Shown here piece after piece: positions 13,785 to 18,973 of a DNA stretch of 39,527 nt. Source of the stretch: a virus. Position 1 is the stretch's first letter. Every line of letters starts with the position of its first letter. The translations under genes were made by a program, and so were the position numbers. The notes under the pieces were generated by a model. That model saw nothing but the letters and a program-made list of their open reading frames with translations. It did not search any database and was not told the origin of the DNA. The stretch is taken from UHGV virus genome UHGV-0152919. One strand, given 5' to 3'.

Positions 13785-14783
13785 TTATCCGTTACCGCGC
13801 GACGGTTTCTGCGTGATAAACGTCTCAAGCATCTTTTCCGCAATTGCCGACCAGGTGTGACACTGGACCTTTTCAGCATTTTTCACGCGATCAACGCGAG
13901 CAATAACCTCATCCCAATCAATCCGCGACTTGATAACCATATGGTTCACCAACTCCAGGCGATCCGGCGGAAGGCAATCGGGCGGAGTTAATATCAACGC
14001 TCCACACATTGCCGCCTCAAGAACAGTTAATCCAAGGCTTTCGGGATGCGTAACGATAAAAATGTCACTCTTACGCAATTCAGCTGCAAATTCGGTTGCT
14101 GGTACCGGAGTCCGTCTGTATGGGGTTACCGAAATATTCCCCGGCTCAATGGTAACCAATCCGTCATCGGTCAGCGTTTTGGCCTCATACGGAACGGTCA
14201 GGCGCTGAAGGTTCATAAGGATACTTAAGGAGTGATCAAACCCACTAACATCAAATGCCGCGTGGTCTACAAAAATACGCAGAACATCGTCTGTTTTGGT
14301 TTCCAGATGGAACAGCTCCTGATTCGCTGCCCATCCAACATGTTTGTTAAAACGATTATGACGCTCTAACCTGCCGGGATTATCCAGGTACCGCCAGGTA
14401 TCATCGCGGACAGTAAAAGTAATATCGACTGGTGCCGAATCCAGCATAGAACCGTCATATACCTGGGCTACCCATCCAGAGAATCGGCGACACAGTTGCA
14501 TGCCTATTTCCCTGGGTACCGTAGTAAAATACCTCAATCCTGGTGCCAAAATGGCCTTCGCAGAACATGCGGTCGCAGCAGTCAACACAGCTTCAACATA
14601 ATCCTCCGGGCTTTCGACGCCAGGGGAATATGGACGATGGTATTGCAATGTTACCCCTGCCTCACTAAAGGCGCAGGCCAGGTTATAAGCCCACATTTCC
14701 GTATATGTTTTCACATCACTGATGGCTGCAAATTTTCGCCCAATGATCAGGATGTTCATCGGCTTTTCCTCATTCCATTGCAT
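13785..14783 (-). CDS. dbn: GT-B-type glycosyltransferase-like protein (P1 Dbn-like), coupled to ban
   Basis: HPESLGLTVLEAAMCGALIL resembles the GT1/GT4 E-x7-E region; ATG overlaps the ban stop codon; symbol inferred from position downstream of ban. Confidence 0.55.
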   Translation of the reverse strand: MQWNEEKPMNILIIGRKFAAISDVKTYTEMWAYNLACAFSEAGVTLQYHRPYSPGVESPEDYVEAVLTAATACSAKAILAPGLRYFTTVPREIGMQLCRRFSGWVAQVYDGSMLDSAPVDITFTVRDDTWRYLDNPGRLERHNRFNKHVGWAANQELFHLETKTDDVLRIFVDHAAFDVSGFDHSLSILMNLQRLTVPYEAKTLTDDGLVTIEPGNISVTPYRRTPVPATEFAAELRKSDIFIVTHPESLGLTVLEAAMCGALILTPPDCLPPDRLELVNHMVIKSRIDWDEVIARVDRVKNAEKVQCHTWSAIAEKMLETFITQKPSRGNG

Positions 14784-16153
14784 TAATAATCCTCTTGCCA
14801 GTCAGCACCGGCATAGTTATCAAACCGTGAGTATTGGCCGTTAAAAGCCAATCTCACCGTGCCAATTGGGCCATTTCGTTGCTTTCCGATAATTACCTCG
14901 GCAATGCCCTTCATTTCGCTATCCGGGTGATAAACTTCGTCGCGATACAGAAACATAATCAGGTCTGCGTCCTGCTCAATTGCTCCTGATTCACGTAAAT
15001 CTGAATTTACCGGTCGTTTGTCCGCACGCTGTTCAAGCGATCGATTAAGTTGTGACAATGCCACCACCGGTACTTGTAATTCCTTCGCCAACGCCTTCAG
15101 TGAGCGAGAAATCTCGGCAATTTCCAGCGTTCGGTTATCTTGCAGCTCGGGGACGCGCATAAGTTGCAGGTAGTCGATCATAATCATGCTCAAACCACCA
15201 TTTTCTTTATAAACACGACGAGCGCGGGAACGTAGCTCTGTCGGCGTCAGGGCGCTTGAGTCATCAATAAAAATATTCTGCTTGTCCAACAGAATACCCA
15301 TTGCGCCAGAAACCCGCGCCCAATCCTCGTCGTTAAGTTGCCCTGTCCGAATACGAGTCTGATCAACGCGTGCAAGAGAAGCCAGTGAGCGCATCATCAG
15401 CTGGTGGCTCGGCATCTCAAGGCTAAAAACCAATACGGGCTTATCGTTACGAACTGCGGCATTTTCGACGAGATTCATCGCAAACGTGGTCTTCCCCATA
15501 GATGGGCGGGCGGCGACAATGATGAGATCGGACGGCTGAAGCCCTGCCGTCTTCTTATTGAGATCGGTAAATCCAGTATCAAGCCCCGTTACACCATCAT
15601 GTGGTCGCTGAAACAACTCTTCTATGCGAGATACCGTTGCATCGAGAATGCTGGCGATATCTTTTGGACCACTACCGCTCTTTTGTCGTTTTTCAGCTAT
15701 TTCAAAAACGCGGCGCTCGGCCATATCCAGCAATTCATTGCTGCCCCTGCCATCCTGCGCATATCCAGCTTCGGCTATTTCATTTGCGACGGAAATCATT
15801 TCACGAACAACCGCGCGTTCACGAACGATATCCGCATAAGCACAAATATTTGCCGCGCTGGGCGTGTTCTTTGACATCTCCGCAAGGTACGCAAAACCAC
15901 CGGCGCGTTCTAATTTACCGTTCTGTTCAAGTGCTTCAGCAAGTGTTATCAAATCAATCGGTTTGCCATGACTTAATAACCTCTCCATCTCACTGAAAAT
16001 TTCACGATGAGCACTGGTATAAAAATCATCAGCAACTATACGATCTGCAACTTCATCCCAGCGGCAGTTATCAAGCATTAAGCCACCAAGTACAGCTTGT
16101 TCTGCACTAAGGGAATTTGGCATGGATTCAAGAGGGGATGCAGACATTAGCAC
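14783..16153 (-). CDS. ban: DnaB-family replicative helicase (P1 Ban-like)
   Basis: Walker A ARPSMGKTTFAMN, DnaB-type N-terminal domain, 456 aa; recognised as DnaB homolog. Confidence 0.92.
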   Translation of the reverse strand: MLMSASPLESMPNSLSAEQAVLGGLMLDNCRWDEVADRIVADDFYTSAHREIFSEMERLLSHGKPIDLITLAEALEQNGKLERAGGFAYLAEMSKNTPSAANICAYADIVRERAVVREMISVANEIAEAGYAQDGRGSNELLDMAERRVFEIAEKRQKSGSGPKDIASILDATVSRIEELFQRPHDGVTGLDTGFTDLNKKTAGLQPSDLIIVAARPSMGKTTFAMNLVENAAVRNDKPVLVFSLEMPSHQLMMRSLASLARVDQTRIRTGQLNDEDWARVSGAMGILLDKQNIFIDDSSALTPTELRSRARRVYKENGGLSMIMIDYLQLMRVPELQDNRTLEIAEISRSLKALAKELQVPVVALSQLNRSLEQRADKRPVNSDLRESGAIEQDADLIMFLYRDEVYHPDSEMKGIAEVIIGKQRNGPIGTVRLAFNGQYSRFDNYAGADWQEDY

Positions 16154-16433
16154 TCCACCCAGGCGTGCTGAATGTCAGATATAATCGGCATACTCAAATC
16201 ACTCCTAACGATATGAGTCATCACCAGAAAATCAGGATTAATGCGCCGGACTCTTCCCGGCTGTCACACCGAATCGCCAGGATGGTGAATCCCTTTACCC
16301 GAGAAACAACAAACGGTGGCTTGCACATTCCGGCTACCTGGTTCGTTGCCTGAGCTAGGGGCAAGGTTCCCCCCTTTTAACGTCACCAGACCGCTAACGA
16401 CGCATGTGCCAGACGCCGTGTTACAACCAAATA

Positions 16434-16509
16434 TGGTGGCCCCTACCGGACTTGAACCGGTGACCGTGCGATTATGAGTCGCCAGCTCTAACCACTGAGC
16501 TAAAGGGCC
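16434..16509 (-). tRNA. tRNA-Ile2-like (anticodon CAU; could be Met by anticodon alone)
   Basis: 76-nt cloverleaf ending in CCA; GGCCCTTTAGCTCAGTGGTTAGAGC... closely resembles E. coli ileX from memory. Confidence 0.85.
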
Positions 16510-16512
16510 GGA

Positions 16513-16620
16513 TTACTGTTTCCTGAGTGCTTCTATGACGCCAGCAATACCGCCTACAACTATGCCAGCAATGACAACGAGAACAATTGGATGCTTGTCA
16601 GCAAAATCCCAGAAGCCCAT
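16513..16620 (-). CDS. micro-ORF, 35-aa hydrophobic peptide (P1 tciC position)
   Basis: Manual translation MGFWDFADKHPIVLVVIAGIVVGGIAGVIEALRKQ; ATG overlaps the stop of the upstream micro-ORF. Confidence 0.4.
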   Translation of the reverse strand: MGFWDFADKHPIVLVVIAGIVVGGIAGVIEALRKQ

Positions 16621-16784
16621 CACTGATCCTTAGAAGCTGTTTTTAATATCGGCCATACCAATGTTACAGCTACTGCTACCAACGCCCCGTCGGATAAAAC
16701 CGACAGGATTGTGCTGGTGAAATCCACCAGCACAGATAGCACGAGAAAAACCAAAGCCAGAATTAGACGTGCTTTTATAACCAT
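16620..16784 (-). CDS. micro-ORF, 54-aa membrane peptide (P1 tciB position)
   Basis: Manual translation MVIKARLILALVFLVLSVLVDF...; ATG overlaps the TGA of the TerB-like gene by one base. Confidence 0.4.
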   Translation of the reverse strand: MVIKARLILALVFLVLSVLVDFTSTILSVLSDGALVAVAVTLVWPILKTASKDQ

Positions 16785-18136: not shown

Positions 18137-18212
18137 TGGTGCCGATTAACGGACTCGAACCGCTGACATCCTGCTTACAAGGCAGGCGCTCTACCAACTG
18201 AGCTAAACCGGC
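18137..18212 (-). tRNA. tRNA-Thr (anticodon UGU)
   Basis: 76-nt cloverleaf GCCGGTTTAGCTCAGTTGGTAGAGC...ATCGGCACCA; anticodon loop CTTGTAA. Confidence 0.85.
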
Positions 18213-18214
18213 AT

Positions 18215-18290
18215 TGGCGATGGTGGATGGATTTGAACCATCGACCCGTTGATTAACAGTCAACCGCTCTAACCGCTGAGCTACACCATC
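18215..18290 (-). tRNA. tRNA-Asn (anticodon GUU)
   Basis: 76-nt cloverleaf GATGGTGTAGCTCAGCGGTTAGAGC...CACCATCGCCA; anticodon loop CTGTTAA; 2 nt from tRNA-Thr. Confidence 0.85.
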
Positions 18291-18755
18291 ACTTGCCGGG
18301 TACGTCTCCGGCGAGGGCTTCCACCTCCGTATGCTTTTCGGCGCACCGCGCCCTGGCTGCAATTCGGTAACAGGGGATGCATAACCCTGGCTTCCAGCGT
18401 GATTAGCGCTTTCAGCATGACGGGATATACCCGTAAATTCGTGGAACTGTACCCAAAGTGCTGTTAAGCACCGCTGTTACGCTGAAAAGAAAACGCAACA
18501 GGAAAGGACGCTGACCAACAGATGGCCCCTTCTCGTTCATCTGGTTAATCACACCAGCGCCCTTACCTGTTGTGCCTCCCCGTTCCCTAATACACAGACG
18601 GGGACACTCTGCGGTCGATTTTTTGACGGGGGACGACTCATACCCCGTGGCGTCTGGCTTCTTAGGCCGCTACCATCATCAGATCATCGTTTGCATTTAC
18701 TTTAATGGTCAGTTTCTAAACCGCCGCAAAGTCGCTAACCATGACGAAAACCCTG

Positions 18756-18782
18756 AAAAAAAACGCCCACCCGAAGATGGGC
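18756..18782 (-). terminator. intrinsic terminator-like hairpin with T8 tract on the minus strand
   Basis: Minus strand reads gcccatcttcgggtgggcg followed by tttttttt; ~180 nt downstream of the dmt stop and of the operator pair. Confidence 0.5.
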
Positions 18783-18944
18783 AAACTGGAAGCTCGTAAC
18801 GCACTTCGGAGTTGCCACTTAGGCGCATGGTCAACCTGGCAACTCGGTGGTTTGTCTGGGAGGACTAGGCCCAGCCATGCTTACCGCCGCGCCTGTCGCG
18901 GCTAACAGCTAAATCGCTCTATAAATCACGATTCATTGAGGCGA

Positions 18945-18973
18945 TATTACACTAATAAATTTATTAGAGCAAT
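18945..18973. promoter_or_regulatory. bipartite, partly palindromic C1 operator (Op72-like), probable ban-operon promoter
   Basis: Perfect 17/17 ATTGCTCTAATAAATTT on the minus strand (18957-18973) overlapping a 15/17 copy on the plus strand (18945-18961); core palindrome ctaataaatttattag; overlaps the dmt stop codon. Confidence 0.7.

Follow-up and report, generated by a model that had tools for sequence, protein, structure and literature searches.

The region between positions 13785 and 18973 of the virus genome UHGV-0152919, analysed here as a window of 39,527 nucleotides (nt), is an operon known for a long time, the early, repressor-controlled ban operon of phage P1. It is considered probable that this operon of a P1-type phage behaves as one early unit, silenced by the C1 repressor in the lysogen and expressed as a single read-through transcript whose leader is an array of RNA cassettes. 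The window belongs to a P1-type phage/plasmid: positions 13600-19200 share the gene order of phages JL22 and P1 and are 99.4% identical over the full length to the former and 99.1% to the latter, save for one stretch of about 195 nt without a P1 counterpart. A bivalent C1 operator lies over a promoter directly after dmt, and this, together with the gene order and the near-identity to the P1 reference, places the region among the Punavirus ban operons.

The ban operon of P1 and P7 is said to have been described by Lobocka and colleagues in 2004 and by Lurz and colleagues in 1987. In the P1 and P7 GenBank records (AF234172 and AF503408) the order of genes, the operator, the promoter and the terminators are all as found here, with a DNA identity of 97-99%. 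The P1 record lists, in this order, dmt, Oban a/b with the promoters P1ban and P2ban, a 'dicF-like region', tRNA-Asn, tRNA-Thr, plp, upl, tciA-tciB-tciC, trnI, ban and dbn, with plp and upl annotated on the opposite strand, and the P7 record says of Op(ban) that it 'regulates expression of trnRNA, ...'. Control of the tRNAs and ban by C1 as one unit is already stated in these two records. The P1 reference differs from the window in lacking the extra 195-nt unit, which is present in JL22 and in about half of the P1-like contigs, and P7 differs in having a fourth tRNA (Ser), another TciA allele, and ban and glt genes that do not overlap.

Expression data from P1 agree with this assignment. The ban gene is induced on thermal inactivation of C1 (c1ts), as measured by reverse-transcription quantitative PCR (RT-qPCR), and has been described as C1-controlled (PMC4713147). 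RNA sequencing (RNA-seq) 10 min after infection with P1vir gave log2 fold changes of 7.0 for tciA, 5.9 for tciC, 5.7 for trnI and 6.2 for ban, and of 0 for the late gene 5 (bioRxiv 10.64898/2025.12.28.696737, Table S1); in the same study tciA, tciB, tciC, trnI and ban fell into one induction class at 10 min with ssb, kilA, repL and dmt (bioRxiv 10.64898/2025.12.28.696737). The finding is therefore already known, because the P1 and P7 records hold it and the RT-qPCR and RNA-seq results agree with it.

Operator, terminators and the proposed transcript

The palindromic operator that a preliminary description of this DNA had placed at the head of the operon is annotated in P1 as Oban a/b. It is made up of two 17-base-pair (bp) C1 sites that overlap by 6 bp: ATTGCTCTAATAAATTT at 18957-18973 on the minus strand, which matches the consensus exactly, and ATTACACTAATAAATTT at 18946-18962 on the plus strand, with two mismatches. 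The operator-constitutive mutation bac-1, which maps to Op72 (the former name of this operator), turns on ban in lysogens. The window as a whole holds nine C1-consensus-like sites, against 0.22 expected by chance. The seven other operator-like sites, with one to three mismatches, are found at 3133, 5225, 5274, 8898, 22479, 37595 and 39265; the site at 22479-22495 lies ahead of uhr-hrdC-dmt in the same orientation, with no terminator between that unit and Oban.

Two elements combine a GC-rich hairpin with a U run and are predicted to act as intrinsic terminators. The first, T1, has a stem of 7-8 bp, a UUCG loop and a U8 tract (hairpin energy -11.9 kcal/mol), and the second, T2, which lies between the convergent dbn and gene 5, has an 11 bp stem with flanking T/A runs (-17.6/-18.1 kcal/mol). 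Between T1 and T2 no minus-strand terminators were found beyond weak matches at chance level. Both terminators, the operator, the tRNAs, the overlaps between genes, the helicase and the glycosyltransferase of the preliminary description are all present where it had put them, and the gene names that it used show that its author had recognised the P1 ban operon. Its remark that all features lie on the minus strand is probably right in substance, since the plus-strand upl and plp of the P1 record are unconserved open reading frames (ORFs) and probably not genes. The features are collected in the table.

The following course of events is proposed. In the lysogen C1, whose binding is established for P1, would sit on Oban over P1ban and silence the unit. 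Once C1 is lost, host RNA polymerase would start near 18937 and first make a pre-DicF-like leader of about 180 nt. Part of the transcripts would stop at T1, yielding a repressor-controlled small RNA (sRNA) analogous to DicF, and the rest would read through T1, which would then be an attenuator, as the analogy with dicF-dicB suggests and as the known C1 control of ban requires. The read-through RNA would carry M0, hairpin Z, tRNA-Asn and tRNA-Thr, then the linkers A-D alternating with the modules M1-M4, followed by the translationally coupled tciA-tciB-tciC, tRNA-Ile2, ban and dbn, and would end at T2. The tRNAs and small RNAs may be cut from this precursor by RNase P, RNase E and, probably, RNase III at the linker stems of about 20 bp. 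Ban can stand in for host DnaB, tRNA-Ile2 would read AUA and tRNA-Thr(UGU) would read ACA, all of these being accessory products.

Table. Features of the ban operon in the window, listed in the direction of the proposed transcript
Feature	Position	Strand	Remarks
Bivalent C1 operator Oban a/b (formerly Op72)	18946-18973	-	overlaps promoter P1ban and the dmt stop codon (18964)
Promoter P1ban	-35 TTGCTC 18972-18967; -10 TAATAT 18949-18944	-	17-nt spacer; inside operator
Short leader RNA, P1ban to T1	18756-18937	-	5' end at about 18937, placed from the -10 position
Intrinsic terminator T1 (predicted)	18782-18756	-	GCCCATC-TTCG-GGTGGGC, then T8
M0-like element	starts at about 18712	-	M0 sequence also in Klebsiella phage K751
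Linker hairpin Z	18574-18496	-	follows M0-like element
tRNA-Asn (GUU)	18215-18290	-	CCA encoded; 74.5 bits
tRNA-Thr (UGU)	18137-18212	-	CCA encoded; 72.9 bits
Linker hairpin A	18135-18049	-	about 21 bp, one bulged A; z -5.2
Module M1	18054-17920	-	closing stem GUUGUGAUG/CAUCACAAC, GAAUGC hairpin, terminal CCGG hairpin
Linker hairpin B	17920-17853	-	z -4.1
Module M2 (short form)	17858-17801	-	
Linker hairpin C	17713-17620	-	arm sequence unlike the others, pairing kept; z -5.5
Module M3	17625-17524	-	
Linker hairpin D	17437-17359	-	z -4.8
Module M4	17364-17241	-	STnc100-like; ends 31 nt before the tciA start, forming the tciA 5' untranslated region
upl and plp of the P1 record	17401-17592 and 17593-18012	+	antisense of the structured array; probably artefacts
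tciA	16784-17209	-	TerB-domain protein, 141 amino acids
tciB	16620-16784	-	DUF3927 membrane micro-protein, 54 amino acids; 106 bits
tciC	16513-16620	-	35-amino-acid single-helix membrane micro-protein
tRNA-Ile2 (CAU; trnI), predicted	16434-16509	-	
ban	14783-16147	-	DnaB-type replicative helicase, 454 amino acids; ATG at 16147 after GGAG
dbn	13785-14783	-	GT-B (GT4-like) glycosyltransferase, 332 amino acids
Bidirectional intrinsic terminator T2 (predicted)	13738-13764	both	between convergent dbn and gene 5

The leader and the hairpin-linked array

About 95 nt of the leader (18901-18807) match at 75-80% an unannotated site that is present in 4243 of 5426 complete E. coli genomes and, in the Qin prophage, lies directly ahead of DicF in the interval from ydfC to dicB. 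The leader has a conserved hairpin at 18845-18809, which is kept through two compensatory changes, being GAGUUGCCA/UGGCAACUC here and GGGUUGUCA/UGACAACCC in Qin. Qin has, in succession, pre-DicF, DicF and its terminator, an STnc100-like element (34.4 bits, below threshold) and dicB; the window has a pre-DicF-like region, a different segment of about 55 nt ending in T1, the array, the STnc100-like M4 (34.4 bits) and tciA. An STnc100-like element thus stands directly before the first downstream gene in both, dicB in Qin and tciA in the window. The Rfam DicF model (RF00039) gave no match on the window at E<=5, and the same model scores 76.7 bits on Qin; since the covariance model finds no match, membership in DicF was rejected, only the flanking pre-DicF region being homologous. 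The terminator hairpin is different as well. The leader therefore appears as a homologue of the Qin dicF locus that is not itself a member of the DicF family, and the spelling out of this homology is new descriptive material.

The Qin dicBF operon (ydfABC-dicF-dicB, with the DicA repressor) is also a repressor-controlled early prophage operon, with a terminator-ended small RNA inside it, upstream of protein genes that need read-through, as here. The two differ in that the DicF body is replaced in the window, tRNAs and extra cassettes are added, TerB and DnaB proteins are encoded where Qin has DicB and YdfD, and control is by C1 and not by DicA. According to Faubladier and colleagues in 1990, DicF reportedly arises by termination together with processing by RNases III and E, and dicB depends on read-through. 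T1 within the ban operon would have a direct precedent in the dicF terminator upstream of dicB, as reported. RNAduplex, applied to the terminated leader and the ftsZ leader, gave a pairing z of +0.27 for the P1 3' segment, where the DicF-ftsZ positive control itself reached only z = -1.2. At 18716-18784 on the minus strand, just after T1, P1-type phages share with Klebsiella phage K751 a short conserved stretch (...GCGACTTTGCGG..TTTAGAAACTGACC...AAATGCAAACGAT), which includes a tiny ORF ending in DFA-x-x-stop.

Dense RNA structure fills the 1.7 kb from the operator to tciA, a fact missing from the preliminary description, as is the extra 195-nt unit. The array itself spans 18712-17241 on the minus strand, and the segment 18140-17205 folds far better than its shuffles (z = -7.3). 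It interleaves five linker hairpins with four or five STnc100-like modules. The hairpins have stems of about 20 bp with one bulged A, with z values of -4.1 to -5.5 against shuffles for hairpins A-D, and the loop of hairpin A holds a T-arm-like GGGTTCGAATCCC. A search for the linker pattern in IMG/VR returned at least 120 viral contigs. Between the conserved linker arms lie loops of 30-55 nt, of at least ten unrelated kinds; 40 distinct arm pairs, in a comparison anchored only on the downstream motif, keep stems of 15-27 bp, and the arm types differ from one another by compensatory changes (GGUAAGAGC/GCUCUUACC, GUUGAGAAC/GUUCUCAAC, GAUAAGAUC/GAUCUUACC and GAUGAGGGC/GCUCUCAGC). The M modules have in common a closing stem (GUUGUGRUG...CAYCACAAC), a GAAUGC motif with its hairpin and a terminal CCGG-loop-CCGG hairpin, around an unrelated centre. 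Among 14 distinct module sequences, helices 2 and 3 show compensatory changes in three of five and two of five pairs, respectively, with a covariation score above that of all 500 shuffles; the perfect pairing of helix 1 arises partly by construction, as the search required a complementary partner.

The linkers usually begin right after the 3' end of a tRNA (GGCACCA followed directly by RCACAACAGG), and in one contig a tRNA begins 2 nt after the hairpin; in D6 and P7 one slot of the array is filled by a true tRNA, tRNA-Ser(UGA). Linkers and modules alternate with tRNAs in temperate and virulent enterobacterial phages, at more than 100 IMG/VR loci. M1 is 96-98.6% identical to DNA in IME207, mEp460 and Stx2 phages: in the siphovirus IME207 the copy (98.6%) lies just upstream of tRNA-Ser and tRNA-Arg, and it occupies unannotated leader sequence on the pL side in the lambdoid mEp460 and an Stx2 phage. 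The virulent Klebsiella phage K751 has a hairpin and M unit that follows M0-like sequence. The position in lambdoid pL leaders hints at a put-like antitermination RNA; the P1 elements lie downstream of T1. Two other identities were tried for these elements and rejected. The M modules and hairpin A are not tRNA-like genes, since ARAGORN and the Rfam tRNA model give only three true tRNAs, and an integron attC-like nature of the hairpins fails on inspection, as the R-box GTTRRRY is not matched (GTTGTGA) and there is no integrase.

The closest named RNA relatives of the modules are STnc100 and PasD. M4 aligns to positions 31-147 of STnc100 and has in common with it the closing stem, the GGUGAAU motif with its hairpin, and the CCGGGAGGCACCCGG hairpin. 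It scores 34.4 bits against the STnc100 model (RF02076), under the gathering score of 47, and M1-M3 were not detected by the same model, so that membership in STnc100 itself was rejected. STnc100 and PasD are Hfq-associated sRNAs of prophage regions; the conserved neighbours include TerB for PasA/PasC, which also have STnc100 matches in their flanks, and Q for PasD (bioRxiv 10.64898/2026.05.13.724894). In contrast to these sRNAs, the P1 modules are without terminators of their own and lie inside a polycistronic unit. During P1vir infection tciA RNA was 2.5-fold higher in an hfq mutant (bioRxiv 10.64898/2025.12.28.696737), which would fit an action of Hfq on M4.

We tentatively propose that the 'leader' is a polycistronic array of exchangeable tRNA and STnc100/PasD-like cassettes, the latter with conserved ends around a hypervariable centre, beginning with a C1-controlled sRNA analogous to DicF, in which the linker hairpins, with their hypervariable loops, act both as joints for recombination and as processing sites of the RNase III type; the chances of this proposal, including the hypothesised cleavage of the linker stems by RNase III, seem to us appreciable, although somewhat short of even. 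As part of it, the same architecture may extend to lambdoid pL leaders, siphovirus tRNA clusters and virulent Ackermannviridae, which is suggested with the same reserve. The T4 tRNA region and the ileZ-argN-argO cluster of Stx phages are likewise composed of packed tRNAs cut from a long precursor with non-tRNA structured RNAs, and Stx phages also have a tRNA-Ile2. The cluster described here differs from those in lying inside a repressor-controlled operon with protein genes and in being punctuated by a conserved family of linker hairpins. A widespread hairpin-linked RNA cassette array, overlooked so far, is new descriptive material as well.

The same elements could be viewed as acting on DNA, as junction repeats, recombination linkers or miniature mobile elements that are only passively transcribed. 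The difference between P1 and the window is a 195-nt unit comprising M1 and hairpin B (17865-18059, or equivalently 17842-18036), which is bounded by 23-nt direct repeats and absent from the P1 reference, and forms with and without it are both common among P1-like contigs. The interval from tRNA-Thr to M4 takes 31 lengths, from 419 to 1353 nt, among 82 such contigs. Such variation, the 96-98.6% identity of M1 in otherwise unrelated phages and the conserved linker arms around unrelated inserts all speak for a role as DNA. However, selection on pairing is indicated by the compensatory changes seen in helices 2 and 3 of the M modules and between linker arm types, G-U pairs are tolerated on the operon strand, and the array elements keep a constant orientation to the tRNAs; the relatives detected, STnc100 and PasD, are Hfq-bound sRNAs, and tciA RNA rises in the hfq mutant. 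We judge purely passive transcription to be unlikely, while noting that roles as DNA linkers and as RNAs are compatible with each other.

The cassette-array proposal also bears on upl and plp, which lie antisense to the array. Neither is conserved in length, frame or sequence among relatives, and the interval that holds them takes the 31 lengths given above among the 82 contigs. The Plp ORF starts with TTG, ends in at least four different ways, has an overlap with tRNA-Thr in P1, and is reduced to a 49-amino-acid remnant in P7 and D6; a Pfam search gave no match for upl or plp, and the annotators of P7 called neither. Both are probably artefacts and not real genes, and the doubt about them is further new descriptive material. 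As the strandedness of the P1vir RNA-seq is not stated, the upl and plp counts in it cannot separate the two strands.

Proposed read-through at T1 and the number of transcription units

A single operon with T1 as an attenuator is the most likely arrangement. The repressor-controlled operon of the preliminary description is upheld by the P1 and P7 records, the induction of ban, the timing in the 10-min RNA-seq and the packing of the genes, with the qualification that T1 makes expression downstream depend on read-through. The spacers are 2 nt between tRNA-Asn and tRNA-Thr, 1 nt between tRNA-Thr and hairpin A, and 3 nt between the tciC stop codon and trnI, and what lies between is otherwise structured RNA. 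This tight packing from tRNA-Asn to trnI leaves no room for a promoter, so that only the gaps 18291-18495 and 16148-16433 could hold one. Independent promoters in front of the tRNAs or ban, which the preliminary description had named as evidence that would overturn it, did not appear in sigma-70 consensus scans ahead of the tRNAs, tciA and ban at a match of at least 9/12, although these scans have little power and cannot exclude weak promoters, because the known P1ban itself scores only 7/12.

Several observations weigh against a single read-through unit. T1 is canonical and lies only about 170 nt past the promoter; with so good a terminator, downstream expression must depend on read-through. 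D6 keeps T1 and has a second terminator upstream of its module, with no C1 operator within the 10-kb locus, and the array may be served by its own promoter, undetected by consensus scans. RNA levels are uneven, with tciA above the array and tciB/C, and dbn much below ban (bioRxiv 10.64898/2025.12.28.696737); this fits processing and fits internal starts and stops as well. The P1 record predicts two sigma-70 promoters inside ban, P1dbn and P2dbn, the latter a 9/12 match at 15420-15393. A literature search found no map of P1 transcription starts or transcripts, and within the single-unit scheme RNase III processing and the DicF-like function are only inferred.

These same observations could be accounted for by two or more units. 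T1, which is strong, conserved in D6 and the first terminator downstream of dmt, and hence of the C1-controlled uhr-hrdC-dmt unit, would end the transcripts of that unit and the short RNA from P1ban, and the module of tRNAs, small RNAs and tci genes, ban, and dbn would be expressed from internal promoters, not strictly under Oban. The D6 module behind two terminators, the excess of tciA RNA over the array upstream of it and of ban RNA over dbn RNA, the predicted P1dbn and P2dbn, and the unstructured gaps in which weak promoters could hide are all what this arrangement would lead one to expect. It is at odds with the P1 and P7 records, which place ban and the tRNAs under Oban, with the induction of ban by C1 inactivation, and with the effect of bac-1 at Op72 on ban in lysogens; moreover, no promoter-like site of at least 9/12 stands ahead of the tRNAs, tciA or ban, and the dicF terminator upstream of dicB is, as reported, a precedent for read-through. 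A division into several units is therefore regarded as rather improbable.

tRNAs, protein genes and a probable mosaic history

The three tRNA specificities given in the preliminary description, Asn, Thr and Ile2, are borne out, all on the minus strand. The CAU tRNA is called Met by ARAGORN and tRNA-Ile by PGAP; it is 89.5% identical to the K-12 chromosomal tRNA-Ile(CAU), resembles ileX/ileY, and carries C4-G69 and C5-G68, two pairs that are determinants for TilS. From these features it is assigned to Ile2 and not to Met, and it would read AUA in a lysidine-dependent manner.

Codon usage was compared over the 44 long ORFs of the window (11,189 codons). AUA makes up 19.4% of the Ile codons (11.4 per 1000) and ACA 25.3% of the Thr codons (13.9 per 1000), against about 7% and about 13% in E. 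coli K-12, so that they are 2-2.6 times commoner in the phage ORFs. Asn codons, at 40.7 per 1000, are unremarkable, and AGA, AGG and CUA are likewise elevated, with no phage tRNA to match them. In the capsid, sheath and tube genes (29263-33465) AUA is used for one of 73 Ile codons, and the baseplate and tail genes (8987-13738) are AUA-rich, with 9-32 AUA per 1000 codons; any dependence on tRNA-Ile2 would therefore be specific to a gene class. The comparison of late-gene codons with the tRNA specificities, which the preliminary description had put forward as a check, thus holds for the enrichment of AUA and ACA and fails for Asn and for the most abundant late proteins, which are nearly AUA-free. 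A codon-supply role is plausible only for tRNA-Ile2 and tRNA-Thr and for late proteins of middle abundance.

That the tRNAs are instead counter-defence spares, replacing host tRNAs cut by anticodon nucleases or colicins and forming one host-interference package with the TerB-like tci genes, would suit a tRNA-Asn whose codons stand at about the host level, major late proteins that avoid AUA, a tRNA set that differs among relatives (Ser-UGA being added in P7 and D6), and a module that adjoins accessory 'moron'-type genes and has TerB homologues spread over very different phages, but it is very doubtful, as the tRNA-Asn anticodon loop CUGUUAA is the same as that of the host, against the escape by loop mutation seen in other phages, the enrichment of AUA and ACA fits codon supply, and the genes are dispensable on the laboratory host under either explanation.

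The protein genes conform to their earlier description as a TerB-like tciA with two micro-ORFs, a helicase and a glycosyltransferase. TciA scores 28.4 bits against TerB (PF05099; cutoff 24.4) in a partial match that aligns residues 11-57 only; TerB-like homologues also occur in N4-like, jumbo Erwinia, Vibrio and Pseudomonas phages. No family model matches TciC, yet tciC is a conserved micro-ORF: in its diverged variants, one of them an unannotated copy in D6, the frame is kept, as are an FW.[FY].DK.P motif at the start, a single hydrophobic helix and a basic tail. Ban contains PF00772 (121 bits) and PF03796 (361 bits) and reaches 573 bits with TIGR00665 (cutoff 385), as a member of the DnaB family. 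For Dbn, the score against PF00534 (23.8 bits) falls under the cutoff of 26.4, and a sequence search of the PDB gave no match. Its AlphaFold2 model, built from 16 homologues, has a predicted local distance difference test score (pLDDT) of 87.7, and nearly all of its top 50 Foldseek matches in the PDB are GT-B glycosyltransferases, several of them GT4-type (GlgM, E 1e-9; MshA; PimB'; BshA), with a putative UDP-GlcNAc 2-epimerase in rows 41 and 45. E248 and E256, invariant in the family, form an EX7E motif within a two-Rossmann GT-B fold, and the label 'glycosyltransferase' is justified at the level of the predicted fold.

One-base stop/start overlaps join tciA to tciB (TGATG at 16784), tciB to tciC (TGATG at 16620) and ban to dbn (TAATG at 14783), and a Shine-Dalgarno sequence is visible for tciA, tciC, ban and dbn and weak for tciB. 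As signs of translational coupling, which they had been taken to be, all three overlaps are real and those of the tci genes are kept in P7 and D6, but the ban/dbn overlap is not conserved, P7 having a 135-nt gap between ban and glt in its place. The 286-nt spacer between trnI and ban (16148-16433) contains a 47-amino-acid ORF that is annotated only in JL22; a portion of the spacer (16251-16419) has 81% identity with unannotated DNA beside a tRNA-Arg in the Stx-type phage TL-2011b. This spacer was also considered as a structured RNA and rejected (z = +0.22).

The suggestion that translation capacity and replication are switched on together on induction fares poorly. In phage D6 the module from T1 through trnI is 94% identical and is followed by orf6-orf5-lpa-pacAB instead of ban, with no C1 operator near the module, within the 10-kb locus; the genes are non-essential, T1 intervenes, and only two of the three tRNAs match enriched codons. 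A genome-wide CRISPR interference screen found trnT, tciA-C, trnI, ban and dbn all non-essential (PMC10695390). TciA (16787-17209) is only about 30% identical between the window and the P7/D6 types although the flanking DNA is about 95% identical, which points to an allele swapped as a cassette. With the different D6 context and the P7 gap, the position of the tRNA/tci module beside ban looks like the product of the mosaic history of P1/P7-type genomes and not like a conserved functional design. In the D6 record, the tRNA strand given by RefSeq (5248-5953) is opposite to that from ARAGORN and homology, and a tciC-like ORF of 37 amino acids (4266-4385) and a CAU tRNA (4187-4262) are unannotated.

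Elsewhere in the window, Rfam models match sok antitoxin RNA (89.7 bits), C4 antisense RNA (68.8 bits) and a1/b1 targets (57 bits) at 35367-35541 and 38999-39204; these matches indicate a predicted hok/sok-type addiction locus and an immI region. In the lambdoid mEp460 (4967-5149) and in Stx2a_WGPS2 (5022-5111), isrK (67 bits) and C4-like RNAs lie beside antirepressor genes, in an arrangement resembling P1 immI.

As stated in the preliminary description, the finding recovers from the bare sequence a P1 operon known from textbooks, which is a good sanity check and nothing new, and the tRNAs, the tci genes, ban and dbn are still viewed as accessory. P1 is in standard use as a genetic tool, and phages related to it are common as plasmid-prophages bearing resistance genes. 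The P1 reference annotation may carry two spurious genes, upl and plp, and P1, like many enterobacterial phages, would carry a modular array of small-RNA and tRNA cassettes whose products have not yet been looked for. If the cassette-array proposal is true, induction of P1 would release five to ten small RNAs, and upl and plp would be artefacts.

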